Positions 10,431 through 52,700 of a DNA stretch of 64,000 nt are shown one piece after another (positions within the stretch are counted from its first letter, which is position 1; every line of letters begins with the position of its first letter). The notes under the pieces were generated by a model. That model did not search any database. It was not told the origin of the DNA and worked only from the letters and a program-made list of their open reading frames with translations. Location of the stretch: NCBI RefSeq assembly GCF_964355755.1, contig NC_092672.1, forward strand, positions 32,680,437 through 32,744,436. The letters run 5' to 3'. Source of the DNA: Antedon mediterranea (taxonomy: Eukaryota; Animalia; Echinodermata). Made by a program: the position numbers and the translations under genes.

Positions 10431-10454
10431 TTATGGATCCTGGTCGAGCACTGC

Positions 10455-18942: not shown

Positions 18943-19079
18943 CTGATGTGCCGCTCTCTGGTGAAAATGTTAATATAATTATTCTGTTCAAGCTCTAGAA
19001 ATAACAGTCAAATACCGTTTGATATATCCCGTATAGATCAGGTGATCTGAGTTTAAACATATTCAGCCTATCGCGAGAA

Positions 19080-20587: not shown

Positions 20588-20608
20588 GGAAATTCCCTTG
20601 TTACGTCA
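20588..20608 (-). promoter_or_regulatory. Consensus NF-kB site (GGGAATTTCC on minus strand) with adjacent CRE-like ttacgtca, upstream of the putative non-coding first exon of the ZAP-like gene
   Basis: ggaaattccc at 20588-20597; ttacgtca at 20601-20608; candidate donor aag/gtaggt at 20780/20781. Confidence 0.55.
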
Positions 20609-21469
20609 CACACTCTTTTCCAGGTCGTCGTTGTTGTTGCAGGCGCAAACAACCAATTAGATTAGACCTGATGTGAGCGAGGCTGTGTTAGTTGGCCCAG
20701 CCAGATGTAGATAGTAGGCCTACGCGATCACATTGACTGGCCTTGGTTGCTTCTTAGTTTTTAGTTAATGTGAAAAAAAGGTAGGTTGAATATAATTTGG
20801 TTATTTAGAGTACAAAACTAACGGACTCTTTCTCTCTCCGTCCGTACGTACTACACAAAAGGCCTAGGCCTATAATTATTATAATAAAATGATGGCCTTG
20901 GCCCTTGTAAATGCTATTTTTTTTTATCATATGCTAGGCTAGGTCATGTTCATTAATGTTGCACATTCGTTTTACACGACCTAGGCTATCAGAGACACAA
21001 GGAATCGGAACAGTTACCTTCCCATGATTAATAGATCACTGTGTGACTATTTGTTTTTGTAGGAATGCCACAATAGAAAGAACAGTGGATTGGGTAATAA
21101 CTCAAGAGCTACCAACACTCCCTCCCATCCCCTGGATCTCCCCTCCCCTGGATTTCCCCTCCACTCAGCTATATATGCGCCATTTCACTTAATATGAATG
21201 TCGCTAACGCGTAATCAGTTAGAGAATAAATGGCAAAATCAGCACTGTGGTCATGTTACAAGAGTAGTCAAAACAATATAGATATCTGATAAAAATCCTA
21301 GAAAGTAGGAAAAAGTTTGCCATTTTTCCCCTGACTGTAATAAAATAGGCATGGACAACTAGCGCAAACCTAAACTGGAGCCGGAGCTGGATATTGCAAT
21401 TTGAGCTTATTAAAATAAATTGGTCTGAGTATATTATGATTTTATAATTTTCTTTGTTACTCTATAGCA

Positions 21470-24400
21470 ATGGAAGACAACAGAAAAAGACAACGTTATC
21501 GTGGCAGTCGTGGGCGGGGTGGTAAAAAAAATAAACAAAAATGTTTAACAAGCAAATCGAACGTAATAGAGAAAGCTTTGAAGACAGTCTGCGAAAATGG
21601 TGGTAGTATTTCTTTTGAAGATCTTGAAGCGAAAGTTGGAAAGATTTCACCTGATCTAGAAAGTTTTGAATACATGATATCACATCTTGATCATGAGTAT
21701 TACCATTTTACCTTGGTAGACCATGAAGATGGTAGTACTGATGTTCAAGTGTTCACTCAAGTTAAGATCTGCCCGTCCTACCAAAAGAATGGCGAATGCA
21801 GGAAAGGTGATACTTGCTCAGATTTACACCTGTGTGGTTACTTTGCTACAGGTACGGTTTATAATTGGCAGCCATTGTATTGCTAATTTTGTTTTTCAAT
21901 TTTTTATGTTATAAAAGTATAAAATTCATTTTTGTATCTTAATGCAACTTGTCTATATTTAGTGGGCCTCCTATCAAAAACTGTTTGTATTGGAGTTTCT
22001 TGAAGGTCCCTTTCATCTAAATTAAATTAATTACTCTTAATTTGTACTTTTTTATTTCTTTCATTAAAGGTTCTTTCTGCAAGTTTAAGATAAACTGTAG
22101 ACAAACTCATCATTATCGATCAGATCACAACAAGCAGGTGTTAAGGAATTTCAAAATTGCCTTCTTGTCCCAGGGACTGGCAAGTGTGCTATTTCGATGG
22201 TCCTGGCCACAGTTTACTGTTCCCGATTTCTGTGGGAAATACCGCAGCAAGACCGGTTGTGGCAAGCATAATTGCAGATTTCTACACATTTGCAAGTAAG
22301 AAACAATCTGTAAAACCACCCCGCAATTTGATTTGGGGTATGTTATGCACCATGTGCCCGCTGCGTAGTTTGCACTGTTACATACCAAAATTTACTATAT
22401 TCTTTACAAAATGGAAGAACCATCAACATTTTAGTGAGAATGCTATGGATTTTACCAAAAAAAAAAGATAATTAATTCAGCAATACCTGTATATGCATTG
22501 CTTTTACAAAATGTATACATTTATACGGCTTTACCACGTTGAAACACTGTCTTTAAACTCCCTTTGTGTTCATTATGTGCATTTCAGAAATCATGTTATG
22601 GAAACTTGCAAATTTGGCGCACGGTGTAAGTTTGCCCATGATATTTACCACGATAGATTTAATACTCAATTACTAAAGCAGTTTGGGATTAGACTTGGCA
22701 GCAGTTCTGATGATATAATCCGCCTTATTAAGGAGCGCCATGAAGGATTCTATCGTCCTGATGTTGAGGTGCTTCAGGGTGAATGTGAAAAAACTGAGAG
22801 TGAATACAGTTTTGGGGAACGCAGCTGTGAGGAAGAAAGCCAATACAGCCAAGAAGACGGCAGCGATGACGATAGAGAAAGCATTGTATCTAGTTCTACT
22901 AATGAATTATATCAGGGAGCAGGTATGTTAAGTATACTATCATTTTACCAACAAAACAGCTAATTGGAGAGAAAAAGTGCAGATGATCAAATAATCATAC
23001 AAAGATATCTCCCAAGTTTCCGATAATTACAAATGATTCCCAACATTTTGAGAGATTTCTTGTCATTTCCCACCAAATTCTCCTAATTGTTTTGGTACAA
23101 AAAAGACATCCTGAAATGCATAAATTTATCATTTAGGCTCTACTAATATAAAAATGCATTGCCATCACAATGCATGTCATCATAATAATGCCAAGCTTGA
23201 AGTGCCTGCTTACTGTAGATGCTGATGCTAGATATTTTTAAAATAGCGCCATCTATTGGTGGTTGTATTTTGCTTTTAAAATATATCGTCCTCTATGGTA
23301 ATATAATATATCCCGTTTTAAAATTTTTCTTTCTTTTAAACAAAATGATATACACACCGGCAGCAAAATTTAAATATTGTTTTATTTTAATTTTTTTAAT
23401 TTTATGTATTTAAGCACATGTGGCCAACTGGGTGCACCGTGTACACTGGACCTACGTTTTTTTTATAGTCCTATTCATGAAGACTTGTTCCACCACCAGA
23501 ACTCGGAGCAGTTTGGCCGTGAACACATGTCGATATTGTTGGCTCTTTAGGTACAGTAAACAGCGCCCCTACCTTAACTGCTCAGCCATTTGACTCACTT
23601 ATACCAATAGATATTATTATTATTAAAATTTAATTTTATTTCTAATTAGCTTCCAACGCTAGACAAAGGTACAGACATCGCCATCGTGGTCGCCGCCGTA
23701 ATTATAATCGAAGAAAGAAAGAAGAAAGTCTCACAAGTAAATCTTCTGTCGCTGAGAGATCACTGCAAGTAGTCTGTCAAAATGGTGGTAGTATTTCAGC
23801 GCAAGATCTTAAAGAGAAAGTTGGAAAGATTTCACCCGATCTAGGAAGTTTGGAAAACATCATATCAGACCTTGATCATGAGAATTACCATTTTAAGTTC
23901 ATAGACTATGAAGATGGTAATGTTGATGTTGAAGTGTACACTCAAGTTAATATCTGTCAAACATATCAAAAGAATGAATGCACCGATGACTGCACTGATT
24001 TACACCTGTGTGGCTACTTTGCTACAGGTATGGTAGTCTGTATTAACCCACCTAAACATGTTCCTCACCCCAAAACATGTTTTACATTAATGCAAAATCA
24101 GAAGTGCTTCTATGCAGAAGAGGTAAAGCCCAATCTAGTTCCCTCCAGACTTTAATATAGTTTGTTTTACTGGAGGAAGACCACGAAACCCCTGTTCCTC
24201 TCACATGCAATTCTAAAGTTTGTGTAACTTTTGAAACTTGACACAGAAAGTATATTACTCTAACCATTTGGTATTTTTCAATATATACAGTACATAAAGT
24301 ATGTAATATTCAAGATCACTCTCAGTGCAGAGAGGTATAACAATATTTTTAGTCGCGTGGAAGCGACTCTATAGTTCACTATGTCGGTCGGTCTGTCGGT

Positions 24401-27400
24401 CTGTCTGTCGGTCCGGTATCACTATACGTTTTATCGCTTTCTGACCTTATCTTGATATCAGTTTAATCTAGCTAAGTCAATTTTTCACAGTATATTCCTT
24501 ATGGCCAGGAATCGATGTGGTTATGTTTTCACGGTGTGCAATAAAAAATTACGCGGTCTACGCACGATTTAACAAAATCACGTTTGTAATCATATCTTCA
24601 CAACCATGAATCACAATTAAATAAAATTTGGTACTCATAAATTTCAGGGCATAAATCATCATATGGCAATACAATTACGTGCGTAGCGCATGTAACGCAT
24701 GCGTACGCGCGCTTAAAATTTTCAAAATTTATTTTCGATGAAATAAGAGTACGTTTCAGGCAATTTTAAGCGTTTACAAAATTGCCATGAGTACGCAGAT
24801 TTTTGCGCGCGCACTGCACGTTAAATGTTATTGCGCACTCTTTTTGCCCGATTTCTGTTTTCTTGACTTACTTTTCAACTCGAAATTACGTTATACGAGC
24901 ACGTCAAAAGTGACAGGCTACGCACGTGTAAATTAAAAAAATATGTAAAAACTGTTTTTAAACATTTCAACATTTTTAAACATGTTCAGTAATTTTGGTC
25001 AGTTGGTAGGTTGGTCGGTCGGTCGGTAAACACTAAGCAGGCGACTGCAGCCATCTATATGGCCTTGTTATTTTATACCTTCCTGCACAATATACCAGAT
25101 TTTGATCCCAGTATCATGGGAATATTCGGTAGTGTATAGCACCACATGTGTATCACATGTGATGCCTGTATCATGTTAGGGAAGGTATTGACTTAAGTTA
25201 TGGTTAGTGTCATTGTTTGTCATTTCTTTTTTTTTAAATTGTTTGTAATTTTATTCTTCTCATTAAAAGGCTCTTGCTGCTGGTTTGGACGGCAAAGCTG
25301 TAGAAAAAGTCATGATTTTCGATCGGATTACAACAACCAAGTTTTAAAAAACTTTGGCATTGCCTTTCTAATACATGACGAGTTGAAAACTTTGCTTCGA
25401 TGGAAATGTCCACAGTTTACAGTTCCAGAATTCTGTGGACAATACAGAAGAAACATGGGCTGTGGCAAAGAACGCTGCAGGTTTCTACATATATGCAGGT
25501 AAGAGTATTTCACAGTAAAATCCAGCACTGACCAATAGTTAAGTGATGATAACTAAACAAATAATATCATTTGAATGTGGTGAAGTATACTGGAGTTTTT
25601 AAGCTTTTTATTACTGAATTGTAGAAGCACGGCCTATTATGTTAGTAATATCTATGTATGACTTGATGATGGTAAACTGTATATCTAAGGAGTTATTCCA
25701 ACATTTCCCACAATTTGTAATGTTAATATGGTTGTATTTATATAGTAGATATTAGCTCTTTTAGCAGATTTTCCAAAAGTGATTGAAATAAAAGACAGAT
25801 TGAATGACAATGACAACACTTGGTTTCCTTTCTCATGATAATTAGAATCATGTAAGTTACAAAATAATAATTCTGCTTTTCAGAAATTTTGTGATGGAAA
25901 CTTGCAGCTATGGAAAAAGATGCAAGTTTGCCCATGACATCTATCAAATAGAGTCTAATAAGGAATTACTGTATAGGTTTCAAATTAGTCTTGCCTATAG
26001 CTCGGATGATGTCATCCGCTTGATCAAAGAGCGCCATCAGGAAATCTATCGACCTGATCTTGAGGTCTTGCAGAGTGATGGAGAAGATAATCAATGTAGT
26101 CAGGAAGAGTGCATTGATGAAGAAGAAAGTCCAGAAATCAGTCCACCTATCTCTCCTATATTAATTACTCATAGGGATTTCGTTTCTCAAGAGTACTCAA
26201 GAAGAGATACTTTTACTCATAAACCAGAACAAATGGTTAGACAAACAAGCTCAAAACACAATTTTGCTCCATTTAAATCAAACGTCCAAGATTTGCTTAA
26301 GAGTTCTGCAGTAGTGACATCAGCTAAACCATCAACACAATATGTTCCAAATAATGAGATACAACAGAAGTCACATCAAGTTCAACCTCTACCTAGTACC
26401 AAAGGAGAAAGGATTACACAACATGCACCATACCAGAAACAGGACAATTTCCAAGATATACCAAAGATGTCTTCGGTAATGACTGCAGTTAAACCATTGC
26501 AATATAACATTGCAACTAATCTGTTAGAAGAAAAGTCAGATATCCAGTCTGCATTCGTTTCTACAAGTCAAGTTCAACCACTATCTAGTAGTAGAAGCAA
26601 CGAAGAAAGAAACACATACACATACACATACAATCTAAGTCCAAAAAGTCCTTCATCAAACCTTAATTTCCAAGAAATGCCAACAAATTTGTCAGTTATG
26701 GCTGCAGCTAAACCATCAATATCACATATTGCAACTAATGTTTTAGAAATGAAGGTAGATTCTGCAAAGCAAGTTCAGTCACTACCTAGTAAAAAAAAAG
26801 AAATGGGTATTGCCAGATTCACAAAAAGTCCAATACAAGTGAAAATGAGAGAAATTTGCAAGGACAACCTGAAAGGAAACTGCAGTAGTGGCAGTATGTG
26901 TCAGAGAATGCATTGTGATCTTCCTTATCAATGGCAAATGTCCATTAATGATAGGTGGGTTGACTTTGATGATAGATCAAATCTGAAAGTGGAAGAAGGA
27001 TTTTCTGGAGAAATCACTGATTGTCCTCAGTTTCCTGTAAATACTACCATGTAAGTTTTGGACTCTTTATTGCTTAAGCCCTGTCTACACTTTATCAAAC
27101 TACTGTAGTTGACAAAAAAAGTGTGATGTACCCAAATATGGTTTTGATATGCCCAAATATTTTAGTGATATGACATCATCATGTCTCTGTGTAGACAGAG
27201 TTTTGGAAGTTTAAGTTAAGATTGTACTTTATGATAGTGTTGATGAAATTGAAGCACAAAATAAGCAGCTGGTATTGCAAAGAAAATTGTAGTTCAAGTT
27301 TTGTTTTTATATCTGCAAAATACATTCCATAACCAATTTATTGCTTGCTGACTACAATCACTAAGTTCATCCTGTTTATTCTACTTTAGTTATAAGAATT

Positions 27401-29794
27401 ATATGCAGTTGTATTTTTTGTATTAAAAAATCTGAATTTTGAAATGAATTAATGGCTATTACTCTTCTTCTTTTTAAAAAAGGGATGTGTGTTTTGATAG
27501 CATGCTTGCATCCGATGGGTTAGACCTCATTTCAGTTGAGCGACTGGAAGTCAAAGGTGATGAAGATGTTTCTGATGCCTATCTGGTATCTCCGTGGTCT
27601 TGGTATTGGCAGGATGAATGTGGAAAGTGGATTGAATACAGCGAACAGGTAGGCTTGTTTAAATATTTTATCTTCTCAACACTCCTCAACCAACAAAAAG
27701 AGAGCAGTAAGCAAGTAACTACAGTAAATAGTGCAGGGAAGAATAGTGCAGGAGCAGAGAAATATTGCTATTCATGCTCCAGCATACAGTACAGTATTTT
27801 GTATTATTAGAACATGATTAAAACAAGATTAATTTCCATTTTTAATTAGAATACCAAGCAGAGTGCACGATCAGACAAAGAAAGTTCAGATTTTGAAAGT
27901 TTGTTTAAAGCTTATAAAAATGAAAATGGAAGTTCCAGCGTTAAATTCAAGGCTGGCAATCAAAACTACACTTTGGACTTCTCTGCCATGAGCCAAACCA
28001 ATGATAGATACCATACCAAAAGACCTGTTTGTCGAAGACCAGTCAGACAGATAAAACCAAAGGATGTTGAGAAGTACAGAAAAGAAAAACCTTGGTAAAA
28101 AATAATAATTGTTAAATTATTCTTATTCGTATTTCTGAATTCAGAATTAATTATTTCTCCTAGATCATACGAAGGTATTTACTACCACATACTACTATGT
28201 TCCATTCTATAGCGGGTACTCTCCCTCATCACACACCAACCACCCCAGTAGTTTAAAATATTCCCAGTACAAATTCTGGTTATGTTGATCTAGTACTCTC
28301 AACCCCTAACCTTGTGTATGGAAGTTTGCAATAACAAACAAGTACTCAACCTGTAGCCCTAGTTTACTTTTACCAGGGAAGTTCATTTCACTCTTTCCTG
28401 CTGTTACCTTTTTTGTTATATTATATACTTAGGTTACACACTCATACTTTCCCAAGGACTTGGGATACAACCATCAAAACAAAAACACATTGTCTTGTAA
28501 GAGTGACTAAGGAAGCAAATAACGAAGAATACAAAGAAATATCCAAACTATTTAAAAGAACTCTTCCAGATGGAGCAATAACTCGACTTGAACGAGTCCA
28601 GAATGAGATCTGCTGGGAAGCATTTGCACGGTAAATTTTAAAATGATATGATAAATTGTTTACACTGTTTGACAGTAGTGATGTTATGGTATGAAAGATA
28701 CATACTAATTTATAATAGCAATGCTATAGTTAATGCACTTACTACTTTTCTTAATTTTTATTAAAAAGTTTTGGGCCATATTATAAGAGCTTATGACATG
28801 AAGGTTATGGAATTTTTAAATAAAGCCTAAAGAAGGCCTTTAGCCTCGAACCAGACCATTGGTTCCCCACTGCAGCCAAATGTTGATAGCTTCATTTGCC
28901 TGTCTACTTTAAATATTGTGTCTATTGACCCTGAACTCTTTTTTCATTGATTTTTTAACAATTTATTTTTGTCTCACAAGGCAAAGGGAAACCATGATGA
29001 AGAAAAACTCTCGTAGAAAAATTGAAGAGCTCCAACTGTTTCATGGAACAATGCAGGATAAAGTTGATGATATCTGTCGTGATAATTTTGACTTTCGCTT
29101 GAGTGGTACACGAGTTGGTCATGTTTATGGACAAGGAGCTTACTTCGCAAAGTCAGCAAAGTATTCCAATGATTACGCTGAAAAAGACAGTGCTGGTAGG
29201 AAGAGGATGTTTGTTGCAAGAATTCTTGTTGGTAGCTACACAGTTGGCACAAAAGAGATGCGCCGGCCACCGTTTAAAGACCCGGCAGATAAGTCAAAGG
29301 GGATGTATGACTCTTGTGTTGATGATGTAGCTAATCCAAGTATTTTTGTGGTGTTTGATAACCATCAGGTTTATCCAGAATATCTGATTACATATACCAT
29401 TTCATCGCCTAATACAACATTATCTAGAGCATCAAACATTCAACCATCTATTGCGACCTCCTACCCATCATCAAGAACTGCAGCAAGTGCCAGCCATTCA
29501 GGGTACAGTAACCCATATTCATCAAGCAGGTATAGCCCACCTACTGTCCGATCTTCAAGTTCAAACCAACCATCTTACACTAACAACCCATACTCAGCAA
29601 GCAGGTATAGCCCACCTACTGTCCGATCTTCAAGTTCAAACCAACCATCTTACACTAACAACCCATACTCAGCAAGCAGGTATAGCCCACCTACCATTCG
29701 ATCTTCAAGTTCAATCCAACCATCTTACAGTAGTCAAAGTAGTTTGCCAAGGAGGGACAGCAAAGCAGATAATAATAAATGTATTTGTATGTAA
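21470..29794 (+). CDS. PARP12: PARP12/ZAP(ZC3HAV1)-like protein, ~1379 aa: two modules of (N-terminal helical region + 4 CCCH), linker, CCCH, WWE-WWE, PARP (H-Y-I), Ser/Pro/Tyr repeats, CaaX (CICM). Exons 21470-21851, 22070-22295, 22588-22922, 23650-24027, 25270-25498, 25884-27050, 27483-27648, 27850-28094, 28433-28630, 28981-29794
   Basis: All introns GT-AG and phase-compatible; exons total 4140 nt; CCCH spacing; YQWQ...W and WYWQDECGKWIEY WWE motifs; LFHGT, YGQGAYFA, PSIFVVFD, YPEYLITY. Confidence 0.88.
23430..23600 (-). mobile_element. Diverged, truncated copy of the tRNA-derived SINE in intron 3
   Basis: gtgtacactggacctacg...tatagtcct...gaagact...caccagaac matches 6470-6530. Confidence 0.6.
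24346..25069 (+). mobile_element. Helentron-associated (HINE/DINE-1-like) non-autonomous element in intron 4
   Basis: Begins tttttagtcgcgtg; (gtcg/gtct)n microsatellite; subterminal inverted caggcgact; 3' hairpin gcc...ggccttgtt; absent from the paralogous introns. Confidence 0.7.
29510..29730 (+). repeat. Coding 75-bp tandem repeat x3 (NPYSASRYSPPTVRSSSSNQPSYTN)
   Basis: aacccata recurs at 29510, 29585 and 29660; same array at ~42842-43060. Confidence 0.9.
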
Positions 29795-33005: not shown

Positions 33006-35370
33006 ATGGCTGCATCAGGTACGATAGTTCTCCAATTTAAGATCTCAAATTTCACAAATCCTGAATTTCAGCATACATCCATTCAAAGAAATAACATATT
33101 AGTGAACTTATTAAAATATTTCAACAAATATTTATTTTGCCATTGTAAAATGTTCTTTTCTATTTAGTACTTCTATTTTAAAATTATTTATAAAAATATA
33201 TTATTTGTCTTAATTATATCAAACCGTTTATAACATTTAATCTGTTTTCGCTATATAGAAAGACTTGACTCATCTTTTAAACAAGGTTTAATAACTTTTT
33301 CAACTTGGTATGACGAACGTTCGTACATAACAAAACTAAAAGTGTTGTACCAAGGTAAAATTGCAGAAACGGATTTATACAATGCCTCAACGACGATGGA
33401 CTTGCTGAATCATTTATCTGATTCTGGGGATCACAGTTCAACAGATTACACTATTCTTTGTGATACAATAAAGGCCACTAAACAGTTTGGTATTATTGAA
33501 GAACTTCGAGTTCACATTCCATCTTTCCCGAATGTAAGAGAAGAAATCATTATTTCCAAGTTCAGTCATCATCAACAAAACATTATGAATTTAGGAAATG
33601 AACTAATACAGGAAGAAGTGAAAAAAATTGACATTATGTTCAATAAACCTCCAAAGAATCATAAAGATGGATGGAATCTCCTTTTGGATTTACAGCACAA
33701 ACAAATTATTTGTGAAGAAGAGAAAAAAATGGATACATTTATTAAGACCTTAGATAATCTTGGATTACCTCGCGCTGTAGCAACTCTTACTCAAGGTACA
33801 ATGTGATGAGTTTATTGGAACATGCTTACATTAAGCTCTGTCTACACTATCAAACTTATATCAAAAAAATGTGATGTGCCCATACAGTATAAATATGATG
33901 ATGTCATATCACTACCATATTTAAGCATATCACTACCATATTTTGGCATATCACTACCATATTTTGGCATATCACTACCATATTTAGGCATATCACTACC
34001 ATATTTAGGCATATCACTACCATATTTAGGCATATCACTACCATATTTAGGCATATCACTGCCATATTTAGGCATATCACTACCATATTTTGGCATATCA
34101 CTACCATATTTAGGCATATCACTACCATATTTAGGCATATCACTACCATATTTAGGCATATCACTACCATATTTAGGCATATCACTACCATATTTAGGCA
34201 TATCACTACCATATTTAGGCATATCACTACCATATTTAGGCATATCACTACCATATTTAGGCATATCACTACCATATTTAGGCATATCACTACCATATTT
34301 AGGCATATCACTACCATAGTTAAGCATATCCCTACCATATTTAGGCATATCACTACCATATTTAGGCATATCACTACCATATTTAGGCATATCACTACCA
34401 TATTTAGGCGTATCACACTTTTTTTGTCAAACTAGTTTGATAGTGTAAACAGAGCTTAAGAGAAAGTTATTTGAAAGCAATTTTTTTGCTTTCTACATAG
34501 TTTTAAAAATATTACTTAAATAATTTAAAACTTTCTATATATAATTTCAAACAATTGTAAATCATGTATGAAATTGGTTCTTATTAATCAGAAATCATCA
34601 AAATATTTTAAATATCATTACAGATGTTCCAATATCCGTTACTATGAAACGTAAGTCTGACCATGAAGACAATCAAGCTCTAAAGAGAACCTGTCTTCCC
34701 GCTGTATCTACACAAAGAAATCTTAATGGAAAACTAGAATGTTTTCAAAGCATTATTGATGAAATTCTGCGATCTTTACATACTCTATCTAAAATTAGGC
34801 CATCATCACTAAAAGATATTGATGACAATCTACATCTTTACCACCTAATCTTTCTGATAATACACCATCTGTACTCGCAACTATCCTTCAAAATCTGAAG
34901 TCTTTACAAAAAAACTATTAATGATAATCTACAAACATTACAATGTACTCTTAATATTGAAAATAGGCCTGTGGAAAGACGTATTTATAAAAAACTGCAA
35001 TCATTAAAAACCTTTCTTAAAAAAAGGAAACAATGTTTGTCAAATTTCACACCAACATTTTGTAAATACATAGGGGAACTAAACACTATGACACAAGATG
35101 ATGAGCAGAGATTATTTAGGACAGTACAACTCCTGATTTCTTTCTGCCAAAGATATGGATGTGAATTAAGCAAGCTGGAACGCAAATGTATAGTTTTTAC
35201 TTTTTCTGTACTGGACCCCATTGCTCTGGCTAATCTGTGGAATATGTGTCAAACGGGAGAGCTTCTTATAAAAGTGTCAAAGGAGCATCAGAAGACATTT
35301 CAAGTGGAATGGACAACAGAAATTGACAAAAACAAATATAAGGAAGCACTTTGTATGCTTGAACGAGAAG
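33006..35370 (+). pseudogene. 5' exons of the DED/TRADD-N-like gene (copy 1): 33006-33018, 33259-33795 (intact), 34624-~35370 (frameshifted, donor lost)
   Basis: Homologous to 58705-60458; -1 and +1 indels at ~34834 and ~34910 with a stop at 34898; donor G/GTGAG changed to G/GAAGA. Confidence 0.75.
33834..34456. mobile_element. MITE of the same family with an internally expanded 21-bp minisatellite (~24 units)
   Basis: TIRs agctctgtctacactatcaaact / agtttgatagtgtaaacagagct; unit catatcactaccatatttagg; empty site at ~59531. Confidence 0.9.
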
Positions 35371-35702
35371 GAAGAGAAAACTGTTCAATGCTTCAATCGA
35401 ATGAACAATTTTTTACAGGCATGTTATAATAAGGATTATTTTTAACCAAGTGATTTTTCAATGAACACATGTGTAGGCTATAAAGGTTCAGTCGAATATC
35501 GCATTAACCTAACAGCAATAACATTTACAAATAGTATAGATTCCAAATATATTAGAAAATCATCTTGATGTTGAGTGGTACACAGACTTAACAAGAATTA
35601 TGCTTTATACACATTTTTTTGGGATATTGCAATTTGAGCAATTATAAAATAAATTGGTCCGAGTATATTATGATTTTATTTTTTCTTTGTTACTCTATAG
35701 CA

Positions 35703-38700
35703 ATGACAGACAACAGAAAAAGACAACGTTATCGTGGTGGCCGTGGGCGGAGTGGTCAAACAAATAAACAAAATTGTTTAACAAGCAAATCGCATGTGAT
35801 AGAGAAAGCTTTGAAGACAGTCTGTGAAAATGGTGGTAGTATTTCTTTTGAAGATCTTGAAGTAAAAGTTGGAAAGATTTCACCTGATCTAGAAAGTTTT
35901 GAATACATGATATCACATCTTGATCATGAGTATTACCATTTTACCTTGATAGACCATGAAGATGGTAATACTGATGTTCAAGTGTTTACTCAAGTTAAGA
36001 TCTGCCCGTCCTACCAAAAAAAATGGTGAATGCAGGAAAAGTGATACTTGCACAGATTTACACCTGTGTGGTTACTTTGCTACAGGTACGGTTTATAATT
36101 GGCAGTCTATTGTTTTGTTATTATTTTTTTTAATTTGTTATTTAAAAATAAGTATGATAACAGTTTTAAAAAATGTGTTAACAAAGCAAAAATGTGGACA
36201 TTCAACGAAACTTCCCCAGTAATTGTGTATTCAAAACTATTAACTAATTAAAGGCCTATTAATATGATCTGTAATCAAAACTTTGAAGTTTGAGACTTTA
36301 AAAAATGCAAAACAACATGTCTAAACTGAACATTTCTGGTATTCTGTGGCAATGGGCCAGAACCACGTTCTTGGTAAGGAAAGAGCAACTAAATAAGTTA
36401 TTTTATTAAAGGTTCTTTCTGCTGGTTTGGAAGAACTTGTAGCAAAACTCATCATTACCGATCAGATCACAACAAGCAGGTGTTAAGAAACTTTAAAATT
36501 GCCTTCTTGCCCCAAGAACAGGCAAGTGTGCTATTTCGATGGGCCTGGCCACATTTTACTGTTCCAGATTTCTGTGGAAAATACCGCAGTAATACAGGTT
36601 GTGGCAAGCATAATTGCAGATTTCTACATCTTTGCAAGTAAGAATAACTGATTTTTATAAATTCTTTAAAAGCTGAAATAAAGAAACTTTAAACCATCCA
36701 GCGATTGCTTGGATTGTGCTTCTTGTCTGTCTGTGGGGCCAACTACATAGTGTTAGAACCTTAACACTAGGTTCTTTTACCGAAACAGATATTGACCAAT
36801 TTACAACAATTAAGTTGTACAGCAACTTTTCTCATGCCCTCTTTGCATTTCAGAAATCATGTTATGGAAACTTGCAAATTTGGAGCACGATGTAAGTTTG
36901 ACCATGAAATTTACCATGATGGATCTAACACCCAATTATTGAAGCATTTTGGAATTAGACTGGGTAACAGTTCTGATGATATAATCCGCCTGATTAAAGA
37001 GCGCCATGAAGGATTCTATTGTCCTGATGTTGAGGTGCTTCAGGGTGAATATGCAAAAACTGAGAGCGAATATAGTTTTGGGGAACGCAGCGGTGAGGAA
37101 GAAAGCCAATACAGTCCAGAAGAGGGCAGCGATGACGATAGAGAAAGCATTGTATCTAGTTCTACTTATGAGTTATATCAGAGAGCAGGTAAGTTAAGTA
37201 TACTCTAAATTTACAAACAAAACAGCTAATTTGAGAGAAAAAAATGATTAATGAAGTGCAGATAATCAAATAATCATACAAAGATATCTCCCTTGTTAAT
37301 TACAAATGATTCCCAAAATTTCGAGAGATTTCTTGTCATTTCCCACCAAATTCTCCTGATTGTTTTAGTACAAAAAGAACATCCTGAAATTCATAAATTT
37401 ATCATTTAGGCTCTACAAATAAAAAAAATGCGTTGCCATCACAATGTACGTCATCATATGTCATGCTTGGAGTGCCTGGCTTACTGTAGATGCTGATGCT
37501 AGAAATTTAAAATAGCACCATCTATTGGTAGTTGTATTTTTCTTTAAAATATTGCGTCCTCTATGGTAATATAAAAATCCTGTTTTTTGAATAGATAAAT
37601 CATTAAATTTTAATTTTATTTCTAATTAGCTTCCAACACTAGACAAAGGCACAGACATCGCCATCGCGGTCGTCGACGTGATTATAATCGAAGAAAAAAA
37701 GAAGAAAGTCTGACAAGTAAATCTTCTGTGGCTGAGAGATCACTGCAAGTAGTCTGTCAAAATGGTGGTAGTATTTCAGCGCAAGACCTTAAAGAGAAAG
37801 TTGGAAAGGTTTCACCCGATCTAGGAAGTTTGGAAAACATCATATCAGACCTCGATCATGAGAATTACCATTTTAAGTTCATAGACTATGAAGATGATAA
37901 TGTTGATGTTACAGTGTACACCCAAGTTAATATCTGTCAAACATATCAAAAGAATGAATGCACAGATGACTGCACAGATTTACACCTGTGTGGTTACTTT
38001 GCTACAGGTACGGTAGTCTGCTTTAAGTTGCTGTTGTTGCTAACGTTTTCCGTCTTCCGACATTACGCTTTCCACAATTTGTTTCCATTTTTTTCTGTTT
38101 ATGGCAGGATGGTTTGTTATTGTGTTAGTGTCTACTAGTCCTTGTAAGTCTTTCTTTATTTGATTCATCCAGTTATTTCTTGGTCTTCCTATGGGTAGTT
38201 TTACTTTCGATCCTGTTAGTTTCCTTCATTGTTTGTTTGATTGGTAGTCTGCTTTAACCCACCTATTAAATGCAGTATCAGAAGTACCCTCTATGTAGAG
38301 GGGTAAAACCCCATCTATAGCTTCAATAGAATTTTTCTGGAGAAAGACTCCAAAACCCTTGTTCTTCTCATCTGCAATCTGAAGTTTGTGTATCTTTGGA
38401 AACTTTACACAGAAAGTATTACTGAAATATTTTAATCCTTTGCTATTTCAATATAATACAGTAATACTCAAGGAGAGACCACTCAATTTTCAGAGCAATT
38501 TTTTTCCCAGTATCATATGAATATTCGGTAATACAGTATCTCATATGTATCATATGCCTGTATCATGTAAGGTTAGGTTAATGGTTAGGTTATATGGTCT
38601 ATAATATAAGGCAATACATGTGAAACATGATAATTATGAATGATAATTAATAATTATTTATTATTTAACTTTGTTGTAAATTGTTTGTTATTTTTGTAAA

Positions 38701-41700
38701 TGTATTGTTATTATAAGGTTCTTACTGCTGGTTTGGACGGCAAAGCTGTAGAAAAAGTCATGATTTTCGATCGGATTACAACAACCAGGTTTTAAAAAAC
38801 TTTGGCATTGCCTTTCTGAGACATAATCAGTTGAAAACTCTACTTCGATGGAAGTGTCCACAGTTTACAGTACCAGAATTATGTGGACAATACAGAAGAA
38901 ACATGGGCTGTGGCAAGGAACACTGTAGGTTTCTACATATATGCAGGTAAGAATATTTCACATGTATAATAGTTGCAACCTCTGTAAAGTAAAAATTATT
39001 TATTTTATGATAAAATTAGTAAAATAATAAAAAGTGGTTCAGGTTCCTGGGCCGGATTGCCTCCAGCATTATCACACACACACAAATGAGGTAAATGAGG
39101 TAATAAAGTAATTATAACAAAACAAATATTTCATTTGCATTGAACCTTCAAGCATCATGGTCAATCTTCAAGTGCTAGTTATGAGAATAAGAATCATAAA
39201 ACTGCATAATAAAAAATTCTGTTTCCAGAAGTGTTGTGATGGAAACTTGCAGCTATGGAAAAAGATGCAAGTTTGCCCATGACATCTATCAAATAGAGTC
39301 CAATGTGGAATTACTGAATAAGTTTCAAATTAGCTATAGCTCGGATGATACCATCCGCTTGATCAAAGAGCGCCATCAGGGAATCTATCGACCTGATGTT
39401 GAGGTCTTGCAGAGTGACGGAGAAGATAATCAATGTAGTCAGGAAGAGTGCATCGATGAAGAAAGTCCAGAAATCAGTCCACCTATCTCTCCTATATTAA
39501 TTACTCATAGGGATTTCGTTTCTCAAGAATACTCAAGAAGAGATACTTTTACTCATAAATCGGAACAAATGGTTAGACAAACAAGTTCAAAACATAATTT
39601 TGCTCCATTTAAATCAAACGTCCAAGATATGCCTAAGAGTTCTTCGGTAATGATTGCAGCTAAGCAATCAACACAATATGTTGCAAATAATGAGATACAA
39701 CAGAAGTCATACCAAGTTCAACCACTACCTAGTACCAAAGGAGAAAGGATTACACAACATGCACCATACCAGAAACAGGACAATTTCCAAGATATACCAA
39801 AGATGTCTTCGGTAATGACTGCAGTTAAACCATTGCAATATGACATTGAAACTAATCTGTTAGAAGAAAAGTCAGATATCCAGTCTGCATTCGTTTCTAC
39901 AAGTCAAGTTCAACCACTATCTAGTTGTAGAAGCAACGAAGAAAGGAACACATACACATACACATACAATCTAAGTCCAAAAAGTCCTTCATCAAACCTT
40001 AATTTCCAAGAAATTCCAACAAATTTGTCAGTTATGGCTGCAGCTAAACCATCAATATCACATATTGCAACTAATGTTTTAGAAATGAAGGTAGATTCTG
40101 CAAAGCAAGTTCAGTCACTACCTAGTAAAAAAAAAGAAATGGGTATTGCCAGATTCACAAAAAGTCCAATACAAGTGAAAATGAGAGAAATTTGCAAGGA
40201 CTACCTGAAAGGAAACTGCAGTAGTGGCAGTATGTGTCAGAGAATGCATTGTGATCTTCCTTATCAATGGCAAATGTCCATTAATGGTAGGTGGGTTGAT
40301 TTTGATGATAGATCAAATCTGAAAGTGGAAGAAGGATTTTGTGGAGAAATCACTGATTGTCCTCAGTTTCCTGTAAATACTACCATGTAAGTTTTGGACT
40401 CTTTATTGCTTAAGCCCTGTCTACATTTTATCAAACTACTGTAGTTGACAATAAAAGTGTGATGTACCCAACTATGGTTGTGATATGCCCAAATATTTTA
40501 GTGATATGACATCATCATGTCTCTGTGTAGACAGAGTTTTGGAAGTTTAAGTAAAGATTGTACTTTATGATAGTGTTGATGAAATTGAAGCACAAAATAA
40601 GCAGCTGGTATTGCAAAGAAAATTGTAGTTCAAGTTTTGTTTTTATATCTGCAAAATACATTCCATAACCAATTTATTGCTTGCTGACTACAATCACTAA
40701 GTTCATCCTGTTTATTCTACTTTAGTTATAAGAATTATATGCAGTTGTATTTTTTGTATTAAAAAATCTGAATTTTGAAATGAATTAATGGCTATTACTC
40801 TTCTTCTTTTTAAAAAAGGGATGTGTGTTTTGATAGCATGCTTGCATCTGATGGGTTAGACCTCTTTTCAGTTGAGCGACTGGAAGTCAAAGGTGATGAA
40901 GATGTTTCTGATGCCTATCTGGTATCTCCGTGGTCTTGGTATTGGCAGGATGAATGTGGAAAGTGGATTGAATACAGCGAACAGGTAGGCTTGTTTAAAT
41001 ATTTTATCTTCTCAACACTCCTCAACCAACAAAAAGAGAGCAGTAAGCAAGTAACTACAGTAAATAGTGCAGGGAAGAATAGTGCAGGAGCAGAGAAATA
41101 TTGCTATTCATGCTCCAGCATACAGTACAGTATTTTGTATTATTAGAACATGATTAAAACAAGATTAATTTCCATTTTTAATTAGAATACCAAGCAGAGT
41201 GCACGATCAGACAAAGAAAGTTCAGATTTTGAAAGTTTGTTTAAAGCTTATAAAAATGAAAATGGAAGTTCCAGCGTTAAATTCAAGGCTGGCAATCAAA
41301 ACTACACTTTGGACTTCTCTGCCATGAGCCAAACCAATGATAGATACCATACCAGAAGACCTGTTTGTCGAAGACCAGTCAGACAGATAAAACCAAAGGA
41401 TGTTGAGAAGTACAGAAAAGAAAAACCTTGGTAAAAAATAATAATTGTTAAATTATTCTTATTCGTATTTCTGAAGTCAGAATTAATTATTTCTCCTAGA
41501 TCATACGAAGGTATTTACTACCACATACTACTATGTTCCATTCTATAGCGGGTACTCTCCCTCATCACACACCACCCCAGTAGTTTAAAATATTCCCAGT
41601 ACAAATTCTGGTTATGTTAATCTAGTACTCTCAACCCCTAACCTTGTGTATGGAAGTTTGCAATAACAAACAAGTACTCAACCTGTAGCCCTAGTTTACT

Positions 41701-43126
41701 TTTACCAGGGAAGTTCATTTCACTCTTTCCTGCTGTTACCTTTTTTGTTATATTATATACTTAGGTTACACACTCATACTTTCCCAAGGACTTGGGATAC
41801 AACCATCAAAACAAAAACACATCGTCTTGTAAGAGTGACTAAGGAAGCAAATAACGAAGAATACAAAGAAATATCCAAACTATTTAAAAGAACTCTTCCA
41901 GATGGAGCAATAACTCGACTTGAACGAGTCCAGAATGAGATCTGCTGGGAAGCCTTTGCACGGTAAATTTTAAAATTATATGATAAATTGTTTACACTGT
42001 TTGACAGTAGTGATGTTATGGTATGAAAGATACATACTAATTTATAATAGCAATGCTATAGTTAATGCACTTACTACTTTTCTTAATTTTTATTAAAAAG
42101 TTTTGGGCCATATTATAAGAGCTTATGACATGAAGGTTATGGAATTTTTAAATAAAGCCTAAAGAAGGCCTTTAGCCTCGAACCAGACCATTGGTTCCCC
42201 ACTGCAGCCAAATGTTGATAGCTTCATTTGCCTGACTACTTTAAATATTGTGTCTATTGACCCTGAACTCTTTTTTCATTGATTTTTTAACAATTTATTT
42301 TTGTCTCACAAGGCAAAGGGAAACCATGATGAAGAAAAACTCTCGTAGAAAAATTGAAGAGCTCCAACTGTTTCATGGAACAATGCAGGATAAAGTTGAT
42401 GATATCTGTCGTGATAATTTTGACTTTCGCTTGAGTGGTACACGAGTTGGTCATGTTTATGGACAAGGAGCTTACTTCGCAAAGTCAGCAAAGTATTCCA
42501 ATGATTACGCTGAAAAAGACAGTGCTGGTAGGAAGAGGATGTTTGTTGCAAGAATTCTTGTTGGTAGCTACACAGTTGGCACAAAAGAGATGCGCCGGCC
42601 ACCGTTTAAAGACCCGGCAGATAAGTCAAAGGGGATGTATGACTCTTGTGTTGATGATGCAGCTAATCCAAGTATTTTTGTGGTGTTTGATAACCATCAG
42701 GTTTATCCAGAATATCTGATTACATATACCATTTCATCGCCTAATACAACATTATCTAGAGCATCAAACATTCAACCATCTATTGCGACCTCCTACCCAT
42801 CATCAAGAACTGCAGCAAGTGCCAGCCATTCAGGGTACAGTAACCCATATTCATCAAGCAGGTATAGCCCACCTACTGTCCGATCTTCAAGTTCAAACCA
42901 ACCATCTTACACTAACAACCCATACTCAGCAAGCAGGTATAGCCCACCTACTGTCCGATCTTCAAGTTCAAACCAACCATCTTACACTAACAACCCATAC
43001 TCAGCAAGCAGGTATAGCCCACCTACCATTCGATCTTCAAGTTCAAACCAACCATCTTACAGTAGTCCAAGTAGTTTGCCAAGGAGGGACAGCAAAGCAG
43101 ATAATAATAAATGTATTTGTATGTAA
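35703..43126 (+). pseudogene. PARP12/ZAP-like copy 2: +1 frameshift in exon 1, remaining nine exons apparently intact (36412-36637, 36854-37188, 37630-38007, 38718-38946, 39229-40386, 40819-40984, 41186-41430, 41765-41962, 42313-43126)
   Basis: A8 run at 36016-36023 replaces aaaagaa of copy 1, giving a stop at 36029; downstream splice sites and ORFs conserved; ends CICM. Confidence 0.7.
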
Positions 43127-46693: not shown

Positions 46694-49455
46694 ATGGCTG
46701 CATCAGGTACGATAGTTCTCCAATTTAAGATCTCAAATTTCACAAATCCTGAATTTCAGCATACATCCATTCAAAGAAATAACATATTAGTGAACTTATT
46801 AAAATATTTAAACAAATATTTATTTTGCCATTGTAAAATGTTCTTTTCTATTTAGTACTTCTATTTTAAAATTATTTATAAAAATATATTATTTGTCTTA
46901 ATTATATCAAACCGTTTATAACATTTAATCTGTTTTCGCTATATAGAAAGACTTGACTCATCTTTTAAACAAGGTTTAATAACTTTTTCAACTTGGTATG
47001 ACGAACGTTCGTACATAACAAAACTAAAAGTGTTGTACCAAGGTAAAATTGCAGAAACGGATTTATACAATGCCTCAACGACGATGGACTTGCTGAATCA
47101 TTTATCTGATTCTGGGGATCACAGTTCAACAGATTACACTATTCTTTGTGATACAATAAAGGCCACTAAACAGTTTGGTATTATTGAAGAACTTCGAGTT
47201 CACATTCCATCTTTCCCGAATGTAAGAGAAGAAATCATTATTTCCAAGTTCAGTCATTATCAACAAAACATTATGAATTTAGGAAATGAACTAATACAGG
47301 AAGAAGTGAAAAAAATTGACATTATGTTCAATAAACCTCCAAAGAATCATAAAGATGGATGGAATCTCCTTTTGGATTTACAGCACAAACAAATTATTTG
47401 TGAAGAAGAGAAAAAAATGGATACATTTATTAAGACCTTAGATAATCTTGGATTATCTCGCGCTGTAGCAGCTCTTACTCAAGGTACAATGTGATGAGTT
47501 TATTGGAACATGCTTACATTAAGCTCTGTCTACACTATCAAACTTATATCAAAAAATGTGATGTGCCCATACAGTATAAATATGATGACGTCATATCACT
47601 ACCATATTTAAGCATATCACTACCATATTTTGGCATATCACTACCATATTTTGGCATATCACTACCATATTTTGGCATATCACTACCATATTTTGGCATA
47701 TCACTACCATATTTTGGCATATCACTACCAAAATTTGGCATATCACTACCATATTTTGGCATATCACTACCATATTTTGGCATATCACTACCATATTTTG
47801 GCATATCACTACCATATTTAGGCATATCACTACCATATTTAGGCATATCACTACCATATTTTGGCATATCACTACCATATTTAGGCATATCACTACCATA
47901 TTTTGGCATATCACTACCATATTTTGGCATATCACTACCATATTTTGGCATATCACTACCATATTTAGGCATATCACTACCATATTTAGGCATATAACTA
48001 CCATATTTTGGCATATCACTACCATATTTAGGCATATCACTACCATATTTAGGCATATTACTACCATATTTAGGCATATCACTACCATATTTAGGCATAT
48101 CACTACCATATTTAGGCATATCACTGCCATATTTAGGCATATCACTACCATATTTTGGCATATCACTACCATATTTAGGCATATCACTACCATATTTAGG
48201 CATATCACTACCATATTTAGGCATATCACTACCATATTTAGGCATATCACTACCATATTTAGGCATATCACTACCATATTTAGGCATATCACTACCATAT
48301 TTAGGCATATCACTACCATATTTAGGCATATCACTACCATATTTAGGCATATCACTACCATATTTAGGCATATCACTACCATATTTAGGCATATCACTAC
48401 CATAGTTAAGCATATCCCTACCATATTTAGGCATATCACTACCATATTTAGGCATATCACTACCATATTTAGGCATATCACTACCATATTTAGGCATATC
48501 ACACTTTTTTTGTCAAACTAGTTTGATAGTGTAAACAGAGCTTAAGAGAAAGTTATTTGAAAGCAATTTTTTTGCTTTCTACATAGTTTTAAAAATATTA
48601 CTTAAATAATTTAAAACTTTCTATATATAATCAAACAATTGTAAATCATGTATGAAATTGGTTCTTATTAATCAGAAATCATCAAAATATTTTAAATATC
48701 ATTACAGATGTTCCAATATCCGTTACTATGAAACGTAAGTCTGACCATGAAGACAATCAAGCTCTAAAGAGAACCTGTCTTCCCGCTGTATCTACACAAA
48801 GAAATCTTAATGGAAAACTAGAATGTTTTCAAAGCATTATTGATGAAATTCTGCGATCTTTACATACTCTATCTAAAATTAGGCCATCATCACTAAAAGA
48901 TATTGATGACAATCTACAATCTTTACCACCTAATCTTTCTGATAATACACCATCTGTACTCGCAACTATCCTTCAAAATCTGAAGTCTTTACAAAAAAAC
49001 TATTAATGATAATCTACAAACATTACAATGTACTCTTAATATTGAAAATAGGCCTGTGGAAAGACGTATTTATAAAAAACTGCAATCATTAAAAACCTTT
49101 CTTAAAAAAAGGAAACAATGTTTGTCAAATTTCACACCAACATTTTGTAAATACATAGGGGAACTAAACACTATGACACAAGATGATGAGCAGAGATTAT
49201 TTAGGACAGTACAACTCCTGATTTCTTTCTGCCAAAGATATGGATGTGAATTAAGCAAGCTGGAACGCAAATGTATAGTTTTTACTTTTTCTGTACTGGA
49301 CCCCATTGCTCTGGTTAATCTGTGGAATATGTGTCAAACGGGAGAGCTTCTTATAAAAGTGTCAAAGGAGCATCAGAAGACATTTCAAGTGGAATGGACA
49401 ACAGAAATTGACAAAAACAAATATAAGGAAGCACTTTGTATGCTTGAACGAGAAG
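46694..49455 (+). pseudogene. 5' exons of the DED/TRADD-N-like gene (copy 2): 46694-46706, 46947-47483, 48708-~49455 (frameshifted, donor lost)
   Basis: Near-identical to 33006-35370; +1 in the A7 run at ~48993 gives a stop at 49006. Confidence 0.75.
47522..48542. mobile_element. MITE with 21-bp minisatellite expanded to ~43 units
   Basis: Same TIRs and insertion site as 33834-34456. Confidence 0.9.
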
Positions 49456-49787
49456 GAAGAGAAAACTGTTCAATGCTTCAATCGAATGAACAATTTTTTA
49501 CAGGCATGTTATAATAAGGATTATTTTGAACCAAGTGATTTTTCAATGAACACATGTGTAGGCTATAAAGGTTCAGTCGAATATCGCATTAACCTAACAG
49601 CAATAACATTTACAAATAGTATAGATTCCAAATATATTAGAAAATCATCTTGATGTTGAGTGGTACACAGACTTAACAAGAATTATGCTTTATACACATT
49701 TTTTTGGGATATTGCAATTTGAGCAATTATAAAATAAATTGGTCCGAGTATATTATGATTTTATTTTTTCTTTGTTACTCTATAGCA

Positions 49788-52700
49788 ATGACAGACAACA
49801 GAAAAAGACAACGTTATCGTGGTGGCCGTGGGCGGAGTGGTCAAACAAATAAACAAAATTGTTTAACAAGCAAATCGCATGTGATAGAGAAAGCTTTGAA
49901 GACAGTCTGTGAAAATGGTGGTAGTATTTCTTTTGAAGATCTTGAAGTAAAAGTTGGAAAGATTTCACCTGATCTAGAAAGTTTTGAATACATGATATCA
50001 CATCTTGATCATGAGTATTACCATTTTACCTTGATAGACCATGAAGATGGTAGTACTGATGTTCAAGTGTTTACTCAAGTTAAGATCTGCCCATCCTACC
50101 AAAAAAAATGGTGAATGCAGGAAAAGTGATACTTGCACAGATTTACACCTGTGTGGTTACTTTGCTACAGGTACGGTTTATAATTGGCAGTCTATTGTTT
50201 TGTTATTATTTTTTTTAATTTGTTATTTAAAAATAAGTATGATAACAGTTTTTAAAAATGTGTTAACAAAGCAAAAATGTGGACATTCAAAGAAACTTCC
50301 CCAGTAATTGTGTATTCAAAACTATTAACTAATTAAAGGCCTATTAATATGATCTGTAATCAAAACTTTGAAGTTTGAGACTTTAAAAAATGCAAAACAA
50401 CATGTCTAAACTGAACATTTCTGGTATTCTGTGGCAATGGGCCAGAACCACGTTCTTGGTAAGGAAAGAGCAACTAAATAAGTTATTTTATTAAAGGTTC
50501 TTTCTGCTGGTTTGGAAGAACTTGTAGCAAAACTCATCATTACCGATCAGATCACAACAAGCAGGTGTTAAGAAACTTTAAAATTGCCTTCTTGCCCCAA
50601 GAACAGGCAAGTGTGCTATTTCGATGGGCCTGGCCACATTTTACTGTTCCAGATTTCTGTGGAAAATACCGCAGTAATACAGGTTGTGGCAAGCATAATT
50701 GCAGATTTCTACATCTTTGCAAGTAAGAATAACTGATTTTTATAAATTCTTTAAAAGCTGAAATAAAGAAACTTTAAACCACCCAGCGATTGCTTGGATT
50801 GTGCTTCTTGTCTGTCTGTGGGGCCAGCTACATAGTGTTAGAACCTTAACACTACGTTCTTTTACCGAAACAGATATTGACCAATTTACAACAATTAAGT
50901 TGTACAGCAACTTTTCTCATGCCCTCTTTGCATTTCAGAAATCATGTTATGGAAACTTGCAAATTTGGAGCACGATGTAAGTTTGACCATGAAATTTACC
51001 ATGATGGATCTAACACCCAATTATTGAAGCATTTTGGAATTAGACTGGGTAACAGTTCTGATGATATAATCCGCCTGATTAAAGAGCGCCATGAAGGATT
51101 CTATTGTCCTGATGTTAAGGTGCTTCAGGGTGAATATGCAAAAACTGAGAGCGAATATAGTTTTGGGGAACGCAGCGGTGAGGAAGAAAGCCAATACAGT
51201 CCAGAAGAGGGCAGCGATGACGATAGAGAAAGCATTGTATCTAGTTCTACTTATGAGTTATATCAGAGAGCAGGTAAGTTAAGTATACTCTAAATTTACA
51301 AACAAAACAGCTAATTTGAGAGAAAAAAATGATTAATGAAGTGCAGATAATCAAATAATCATACAAAGATATCTCCCTTGTTAATTACAAATGATTCCCA
51401 AAATTTCGAGAGATTTCTTGTCATTTCCCACCAAATTCTCCTGATTGTTTTAGTACAAAAAGAACATCCTGAAATTCATAAATTTATCATTTAGGCTCTA
51501 CAAATAAAAAAAATGCGTTGCCATCACAATGTACGTCATCATATGTCATGCTTGGAGTGCCTGGCTTACTGTAGATGCTGATGCTAGAAATTTAAAATAG
51601 CACCATCTATTGGTAGTTGTATTTTTCTTTAAAATATTGCGTCCTCTATGGTAATATAAAAATCCTGTTTTTTGAATAGATAAATCATTAAATTTTAATT
51701 TTATTTCTAATTAGCTTCCAACACTAGACAAAGGCACAGACATCGCCATCGCGGTCGTCGACGTGATTATAATCGAAGAAAAAAAGAAGAAAGTCTGACA
51801 AGTAAATCTTCTGTGGCTGAGAGATCACTGCAAGTAGTCTGTCAAAATGGTGGTAGTATTTCAGCGCAAGACCTTAAAGAGAAAGTTGGAAAGGTTTCAC
51901 CCGATCTAGGAAGTTTGGAAAACATCATATCAGACCTCGATCATGAGAATTACCATTTTAAGTTCATAGACTATGAAGATGATAATGTTGATGTTACAGT
52001 GTACACCCAAGTTAATATCTGTCAAACATATCAAAAGAATGAATGCACAGATGACTGCACAGATTTACACCTGTGTGGTTACTTTGCTACAGGTACGGTA
52101 GTCTGCTTTAAGTTGCTGTTGTTGCTAACGTTTTCCGTCTTCCGACATTACGCTTTCCACAATTTGTTTCCATTTTTTTCTGTTTATGGCAGGATGGTTT
52201 GTTATTGTGTTAGTGTCTACTAGTCCTTGTAAGTCTTTCTTTATTTGATTCATCCAGTTATTTCTTGGTCTTCCTATGGGTCGTTTTACTTTCGATCCTG
52301 TTAGTTTCCTTCATTGTTTGTTTGATTGGTAGTCTGCTTTAACCCACCTATTAAATGCAGTATCAGAAGTACCCTCTATGTAGAGGGGTAAAACCCCATC
52401 TATAGCTTCAATAGAATTTTTCTGGAGAAAGACTCCAAAACCCTTGTTCTTCTCATCTGCAATCTGAAGTTTGTGTATCTTTGGAAACTTTACACAGAAA
52501 GTATTACTGAAATATTTTAATCCTTTGCTATTTCAATATAATACAGTAATACTCAAGGAGAGACCACTCAATTTTCAGAGCAATTTTTTTCCCAGTATCA
52601 TATGAATATTCGGTAATACAGTGTCTCATATGTATCATATGCCTGTATCATGTAAGGTTAGGTTAATGGTTAGGTTATATGGTCTATAATATAAGGCAAT

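Follow-up and report, generated by a model that had tools for sequence, protein, structure and literature searches.

What becomes of a gene whose front has been joined to the body of its neighbour? The window analysed here, a 64,000-nucleotide stretch of the Antedon mediterranea genome, contains two such joined copies between what appear to be their intact parents, and it raises the questions of how the joint was made, whether it ever yielded a working protein and whether it does so today. Self-BLAST and alignments bore out the order proposed by the initial annotation, A-[B5'::A]-[B5'::A]-B, which we read as gene A (PARP12-like), the fused copies M and T, and gene B (DED-PARP). The main features of the locus are as follows.

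21468–29794, + strand: gene A, the intact PARP12-like parent (spliced RNA contigs of run X6 carry A-type letters)
33006–43126, + strand: copy M, the middle fused copy (exons B1–B3, then a1–a10)
35573–35621, + strand: fusion junction from B intron 3 to A intron 0, with filler (self-BLAST, alignments and an X2 contig)
46694–56791, + strand: copy T, the older fusion (seven lesions)
58705–63396, + strand: gene B, the intact DED-(TRADD-N-like)-PARP-CILA parent (6 exons, 1073 aa)

The account that we favour, with somewhat more confidence than doubt, is that a tandem duplication joined intron 3 of the DED-PARP gene to the first intron of the PARP12-like gene, giving an in-frame fusion that was once translated and is now a decaying pseudogene.

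The fusion junction

M and T each contain the upstream region and first three exons of B, followed by the intron of A that precedes its first coding exon. The match to gene B ends at 35573 (60654 in B; loosely at 35592) and the match to gene A starts at 35621–35622 (21388–21389 in A), with a filler of about 28 nt that is present only in the two fused copies. The initial annotation, which had put the switch between about 35572 and 35620 and proposed a dot-plot to define the breakpoints, agrees closely with the interval of 35573–35621 obtained from self-BLAST and alignments. A DNA contig of run X2 bridges the junction (35544–35771) with 0 differences. The junction lies between two introns, and the fused copies have retained the introns of each parent. 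Phase 1 is shared by the donors of B1, B2 and B3, by the acceptors of a1, a2 and a4 and by every border from B1 to a2, so the earlier claim of phase-1 compatible junction exons also stands.

A PARP12-like parent

Gene A has 10 coding exons and encodes 1379 aa with the arrangement [WH-CCCHx4]x2-CCCH-WWE-PARP-CICM. It has nine CCCH motifs (the two exon-skipping frames of M described below have seven and five), and there are Pfam zf-CCCH matches. The WH_PARP12 match is below the Pfam cutoff, as are those to WWE (E 0.001) and WWE_4 (E 0.012), each on single exons, and the C-terminal domain, as encoded by exons a7–a10 of M, matches Pfam PARP with an E of 9e-20. The best PDB match of this domain is PARP12 (E 6e-36), against an E of 1e-22 for ZAP. 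The PARP domain of ZAP proper is inactive. The catalytic LFHGT and GAYFA motifs, with their His and Tyr, are present in all four copies. In the accessible part of PMC8102003, ZAP is confined to tetrapods and most invertebrates have one copy of a PARP12/ZAP family gene. ZAP identity was therefore rejected on the PDB match, the tetrapod restriction, which contrasts with the crinoid relatives of the DED exon, and the retained motifs, and the label 'ZAP-like' given earlier is better replaced by PARP12-like. The locus shares with this family, as far as that part of PMC8102003 describes it, the CCCH fingers, a putative WWE region and the C-terminal PARP domain; it differs in its doubled N-terminal module, its kept catalytic His and Tyr motifs, its CaaX end and its number of copies, three instead of one, two of them fused.

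The 5' UTR exon of A ends at about 20780, outside the duplicated unit, and an X6 RNA contig has a loose end at the a1 acceptor that matches 20757–20779, joining this exon to a1. With this exon left out of the duplication, transcription of M and T would have to rely on the promoter of B. Upstream of the 5' UTR exon, at 20588–20597, lies GGAAATTCCC, which we take to be an NF-kB-like site; the regions that were scanned ahead of B and M contain no such match. As a separate observation, exons a2–a3 of A (22070–22922) are unusually diverged from T (dS 0.31–0.34), and a2 of a related organism is closer to T than the a2 of A is, which suggests conversion from a divergent allele or paralog.

The DED cassette and gene B

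Gene B is composed of a DED exon, a second cassette exon, a low-complexity exon, PARP and CILA. It is itself an intact fusion of the DED-(TRADD-N-like)-PARP-CaaX type without fingers and WWE, and it ends in acidic 111-bp repeats. Its PARP exons show an omega of 0.85–1.33 against A, with the catalytic motifs kept. The DED is below the Pfam cutoff at the locus (E 8e-6 to 2e-4) and above it in a relative, P0001 (E 4e-19). Of the DED-DED front described initially, the first domain is thus recognisable, if below the cutoff; a second DED was not detected by Pfam, and exon B2 has a second helical repeat at this place. Among 407 candidates, 13 relatives of the DED exon were found, all of them crinoid proteins; identity to B's copy of exon B2 spans 44–70% (58–70% in Antedon mediterranea, 44–46% in Anneissia japonica). 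These relatives have variable C-terminal effectors, including B-box, ZU5, Roc and NACHT-LRR (8 of the 13 matches scanned). Exon B3 gave no direct Pfam match to TRADD-N, and 3 of 16 relatives match TRADD-like_N below the cutoff (E 0.007–0.018) on the stretch that aligns to B3. Fold searches with a model of the B3 domain (pLDDT 80, pTM 0.55) returned no match at E<=0.001, the best Z being 4.5.

In its PARP half, B is the outgroup: A and T are placed together by 157 sites, the other two pairings by 49 and 28. B would therefore be the older fusion. The idea that present B and A descend from the fusion was rejected. When the exon-4 acceptor of B (60910) was compared with a set of 505 pyrimidine-rich YAG sites, its three highest non-self scores came from the a1 acceptors of A (35), M (34) and T (34), the next score being 24. 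This 27-nt hint suggests that the ancestor of B was fused into the same PARP12 intron and later lost its fingers and WWE. Independently of this, intron 1 differs between B and T (58718–58955 and 46707–46946) at 2 of 238 sites while its flanks differ by 7–9%, suggesting recent gene conversion.

Exons and lesions of the fused copies

The exons of M and the repeat in its second intron are the following.

33006–33018, + strand: exon B1, with the start codon and a phase-1 donor
33259–33795, + strand: exon B2, DED and second helical repeat, phase 1-1, open (Pfam DED E 2e-4, below cutoff)
33905–34416, + strand: 21-bp minisatellite in intron 2 (24 copies in M, 43 in T, absent from B)
34624–35370, + strand: exon B3, linker and predicted TRADD-N-like domain
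35701–36085, + strand: exon a1, winged helix and first CCCH, with +1 in the A-run 36016–36023
36412–36637, 36854–37188, 37630–38007 and 38718–38946, + strand: exons a2, a3, a4 and a5, CCCH modules, T-type, open
39229–40386, + strand: exon a6, the crossover zone
40819–40984, 41186–41430, 41765–41962 and 42313–43126, + strand: exons a7–a10, WWE, PARP and CaaX CICM, A-type, intact

Exon B3 of M has a +1 in the A-run 34908–34914, a GT donor lost at 35371 and an 18-nt in-frame deletion; the B3 donor is dead in both fused copies. Exon a1 reaches a stop after 108 codons from its own ATG, and both of its splice sites are intact. The A-runs at 34908 (7-A) and 36016 (8-A) are both present without gaps in X2 contigs, and the X2 contig across the dead donor at 35371 has no gap and one other letter; homopolymer error was thus rejected as the source of the shared frameshifts. 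The dead donor had been missed in the initial annotation. A -1 frameshift at 34834 is private to M and unseen in X2 or X3 contigs. The claim that lesions lie only in 34624–35370 and 35701–36085 is true of M but not of T, which has four more.

The seven lesions of T are +1 in B3, the B3 donor, +1 in a1, two +2 insertions in a6, the a6 donor and a TAA at 56564–56566, of which the last four are found in T only. Their density is similar in the two halves (2 in 1285 nt and 5 in 3739 nt). One of them, at 53497, lies in the region that T contributed to M; since M lacks this lesion, it is younger than M.

Default splicing of M is not open: inclusion of all exons leads to a stop at codon 275, and skipping of B3 to a stop at codon 293. 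As initially claimed, splicing from 33795 to 36412 (B3 and a1 skipped) or to 37630 (B3 to a3 skipped) is open; the computed products have 1432 and 1245 aa, both end in CICM, and the 1245-aa form retains a whole WH-CCCH4 module. The skip junctions need introns of 2.6–3.8 kb, compared with 0.2–0.8 kb for the introns on the DED side. In T, both skip frames are dead, with stops at codons 664 and 477.

Duplication history

Exon a6 of M is T-type up to 39724 (31 of 32 informative sites), mixed to about 40375 and A-type thereafter; at 40387–41985, 117 of 123 informative sites are A-type. M is likely the product of a recent unequal crossover between A and T in a6, with a T-type front and an A-type back. 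The repeat units of M and T differ by 112 substitutions in 13316 aligned bases, of which 42 are in the first bin; about 70 substitutions in 12.8 kb (~0.5%) remain outside it. The crossover and the phase-1 exon borders together likely explain the open skip frame (chance 4–24%).

The dS values of 0.11 between B and T (B2 and B3) and 0.08 between A and T (a6–a10) and the non-coding divergence of T and B5' from their parents (about 8% over 2380 sites) are alike, in agreement with a single duplication event. The dS between A and T is uneven along the gene (0.06–0.34), and a2 of the related organism is closer to M (7 differences in 228 nt) than is the a2 of A (88% identity); part of the low omega between A and T, described below, may thus predate the fusion. 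The DNA run X5 of the related organism gives no cover at 35528–35681 and looks single-copy, although a coverage gap of this kind proves nothing.

Selection on the two halves

Over 1232 codons, A and T are separated by equal numbers of missense and synonymous changes, 93 of each (omega 0.23). In the WWE-PARP exons a7–a10 there are 19 synonymous and 10 missense changes on both branches, where neutrality would predict about 31 missense changes on T alone (P 1e-5). These counts argue strongly that the WWE-PARP exons of T have been under purifying selection, part of which may predate the fusion.

In the front half, B2–B3, purifying selection is absent. Comparison of B with T gives an omega of 0.50 in the DED exon and 0.57 in the dead exon B3, so that the DED exon, which would be kept by exon-skipping rescue, is not favoured over the skipped one. 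Drift of the DED exon has been faster in the fused copies' lineage, with 11 changes versus 4. When polarised with distant paralogs, amino-acid changes in B2 and B3 number 27 on the fusion lineage and 11 on that of B, with 15 unpolarised (p 0.014). When polarised with contigs of the related organism, B3 has 13 missense to 4 synonymous changes (17 of 48 differences usable) and a1 has 7 to 5 (12 of 22 usable), the latter not clearly neutral. B2 and B3 together have 2 truncating lesions against 7.6–12 expected from intronic indel rates (P 0.001–0.02). Relaxed missense change in a frame that stayed open, ahead of a constrained PARP12 half, is likely the trace that a translated in-frame fusion would leave.

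Sequencing runs and RNA

The stretch was found in nine sequencing runs; four of them, from one sample, hold at least 0.85 of its words, and this sample may be the source of the assembly. No run listed is recorded as RNA, but X6 and X9 behave as RNA because their contigs skip introns. The long X6 contigs have A-type letters across a1–a6, one low-depth contig has B-type exon 3, and all of the long spliced contigs listed for X6 are of A or B type. Among the contigs listed for this run there is no fusion-type RNA contig and no DED-derived loose end at 35701 or 36412. This absence does not speak for silence of M: X6 was made from a different sample, which may not carry the fusion, the stretches compared exclude the DED exon, and contigs drop rare isoforms. 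An X6 contig on a1 with a depth of 2.55 was rejected as a paralog (89% identical).

Origin and present state of the fusion

In the favoured account, one duplication would have placed the PARP12-like exons under the promoter of B. The ancestral product would have been DED-(TRADD-N-like)-[WH-CCCH4]2-CCCH-WWE-PARP-CaaX, a putative membrane-anchored RNA/ADP-ribose sensor with a death-fold adaptor, in which selection would act on the PARP12 part while the adaptor drifted yet stayed open. Inactivation would have come recently, with T accumulating its seven lesions, and the crossover of A with T in a6 would then have yielded M with its intact 3' half. Today, B1–B2 spliced to a1 would stop at codon 293, and earlier if B3 were included; most M transcripts would be NMD targets or short DED-only products, with the double skip a minor isoform at best. 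M and T are probably pseudogenes now. The initial idea of exon shuffling by tandem duplication is upheld in its phase-compatible exons and its direction (157 sites versus 49 and 28); 'caught in progress' describes it less well than a history in which the fusion arose, was likely used, and is decaying at present after partial repair by crossover.

The same selection data are fitted, parsimony aside, by a two-step origin, in which A and B were duplicated whole, both copies worked, and a later deletion fused and killed them both, so that a fusion protein was never functional. Such a history would account for the purifying selection seen on T, for a B5' that drifts while staying open and for the equal density of lesions, and the uneven dS does show that the history was complex. 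We consider it unlikely, since it needs two events, self-BLAST shows nothing left of the deleted DNA, the exon phases put the junction in frame, and gene B is an example of such a fusion being viable. A different objection concerns the pseudogene verdict. All three shared lesions lie in the skippable exons B3 and a1, and the dead donor would favour skipping of B3, so that M might be a live gene whose transcripts lack B3 and a1 (or B3 to a3) and encode DED-CCCH-WWE-PARP-CaaX, a link between RNA sensing and a death fold. The placement of the lesions has a chance of 0.04 for this exact set but of 0.13–0.24 once all skippable sets are counted, and the frames that are open on paper in M, the shorter one with a complete WH-CCCH4 module, are closed in T. 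With the splice sites of a1 in good order, the long introns that a skip requires, a DED exon showing no extra constraint and no fusion-type RNA contig among those listed, the rescue by exon skipping proposed initially seems to us rather improbable as a description of M today.

It may also be asked whether M exists at all, or is an assembly artefact made by a haplotype switch inside a6, with only A-T-B real and no rescue frame. The near identity of the M and T units invites this reading; the mosaic point is spanned by no contig among those listed, and four M-private letters are unseen in contigs. Contigs of M/T type are 1.48x (X2) and 1.65x (X3) as deep as single-locus ones, a comparison of 7 with 5 hand-picked contigs per run in which depth is not copy number; it gives a weak hint that the extra copy is real, perhaps on one haplotype. 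The contigs also have the ancestral letter at 5 of 5 polarisable M/T sites, as expected with at least three copies, and M may be on one haplotype only. We hold an artefact to be very improbable. Short cFLIP is a DED-only decoy, and the early stops at codons 275–293 could give the fused copies a like role: in each of them B1 and B2 have an open frame and undamaged splice sites, and there is one AATAAA-type site at 35648. Against this stand the faster drift of the DED exon on the fusion lineage and the position of the early stops upstream of many introns, and we hold a decoy function to be extremely improbable. A more far-reaching form of the history, which we regard as distinctly improbable, would make the locus a repeating fusion factory: the PARP12 intron would have been joined twice to the DED cassette, in the ancestor of B and in T; T would have worked and died; and the crossover would have revived a segregating skip allele, a membrane-anchored DED-CCCH-WWE-PARP coupling RNA sensing to cell death.

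Relation to known fusions

Lineage-specific expansions of DED and TRADD-N, with constant N-terminal regions and variable effectors, have been described in marine invertebrates, with effectors including PARP14-like Macro-PARP in oysters, sponge and corals and TRADD-N with PARP in amphioxus; retrotransposition was the proposed origin (Kaur et al. 2021, PMC8195603, in its accessible part). The crinoid relatives of the cassette likewise have variable effectors, but the partner here is of PARP12 type (CCCH-WWE-PARP), and in place of retrotransposition no intron has been lost and the junction joins one intron to another. Among the entries seen in supplementary file 4 of PMC8195603, none of 19 PARP, 6 CCCH and 5 WWE occurrences has the PARP12-type architecture. 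A DED-PARP12 fusion, or a PARP12-type partner acquired by intron-to-intron duplication, was not found in the literature searched. Homolog searches with exons a6 and a1 against longer proteins for a natural DED-PARP12 protein were empty, which is weak evidence, and four PARP12-like exons were matched by 0 of 29 retrieved proteins. DED(-TRADD-N)-PARP fusions are already known in marine invertebrates. Young chimeric genes made by tandem duplication form a general class (compare the 'tinkering loci' preprint, 10.64898/2026.08.09.743762), in which, as here, a partial duplicate is fused in introns, one parent's promoter drives the other, and copies are later gained by unequal crossover; here, in contrast, a single window seems to combine an old and fixed fusion (B) with one that is dead (T) and one that is recombinant (M).

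Marine invertebrates have large sets of DED-TRADD-N fusion proteins that change quickly. The locus shows, at base resolution, a plain DNA route to DED fusions, by intron-to-intron tandem duplication between neighbours with phase-1 borders, and the birth, use, decay and recombination of one fusion are likely all visible in it. Should an intact or skipped form prove to be expressed, a PARP12-type sensor would be wired to a death fold, of which we found no description. An unexpressed fusion would be no more than a duplicate dying in the ordinary way within an immune cluster, and intact gene B would be the part worth study.

Other features in the window

Three single-ORF paralogs at 133–1881, 12884–14848 and 17728–18969 (- strand) are putative SAM methyltransferases (Methyltransf_34, E 5e-4 for the third). 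Two of them end in CILL, which is CaaX-like; one of the three paralogs is joined to three RRM domains and may be a further young fusion. An inverted pair of 1.7-kb arms at 8279–12135, 97% identical, has degraded ORFs with no family match, which we presume to be transposase-derived. A repeat element with a 21-bp core occurs in many copies, short ones being at 27123, 31579, 40459, 44943 and 45143; only in intron 2 of the fused copies has its core expanded to minisatellites, of 24 copies at 33905–34416 and 43 copies at 47592–48502.
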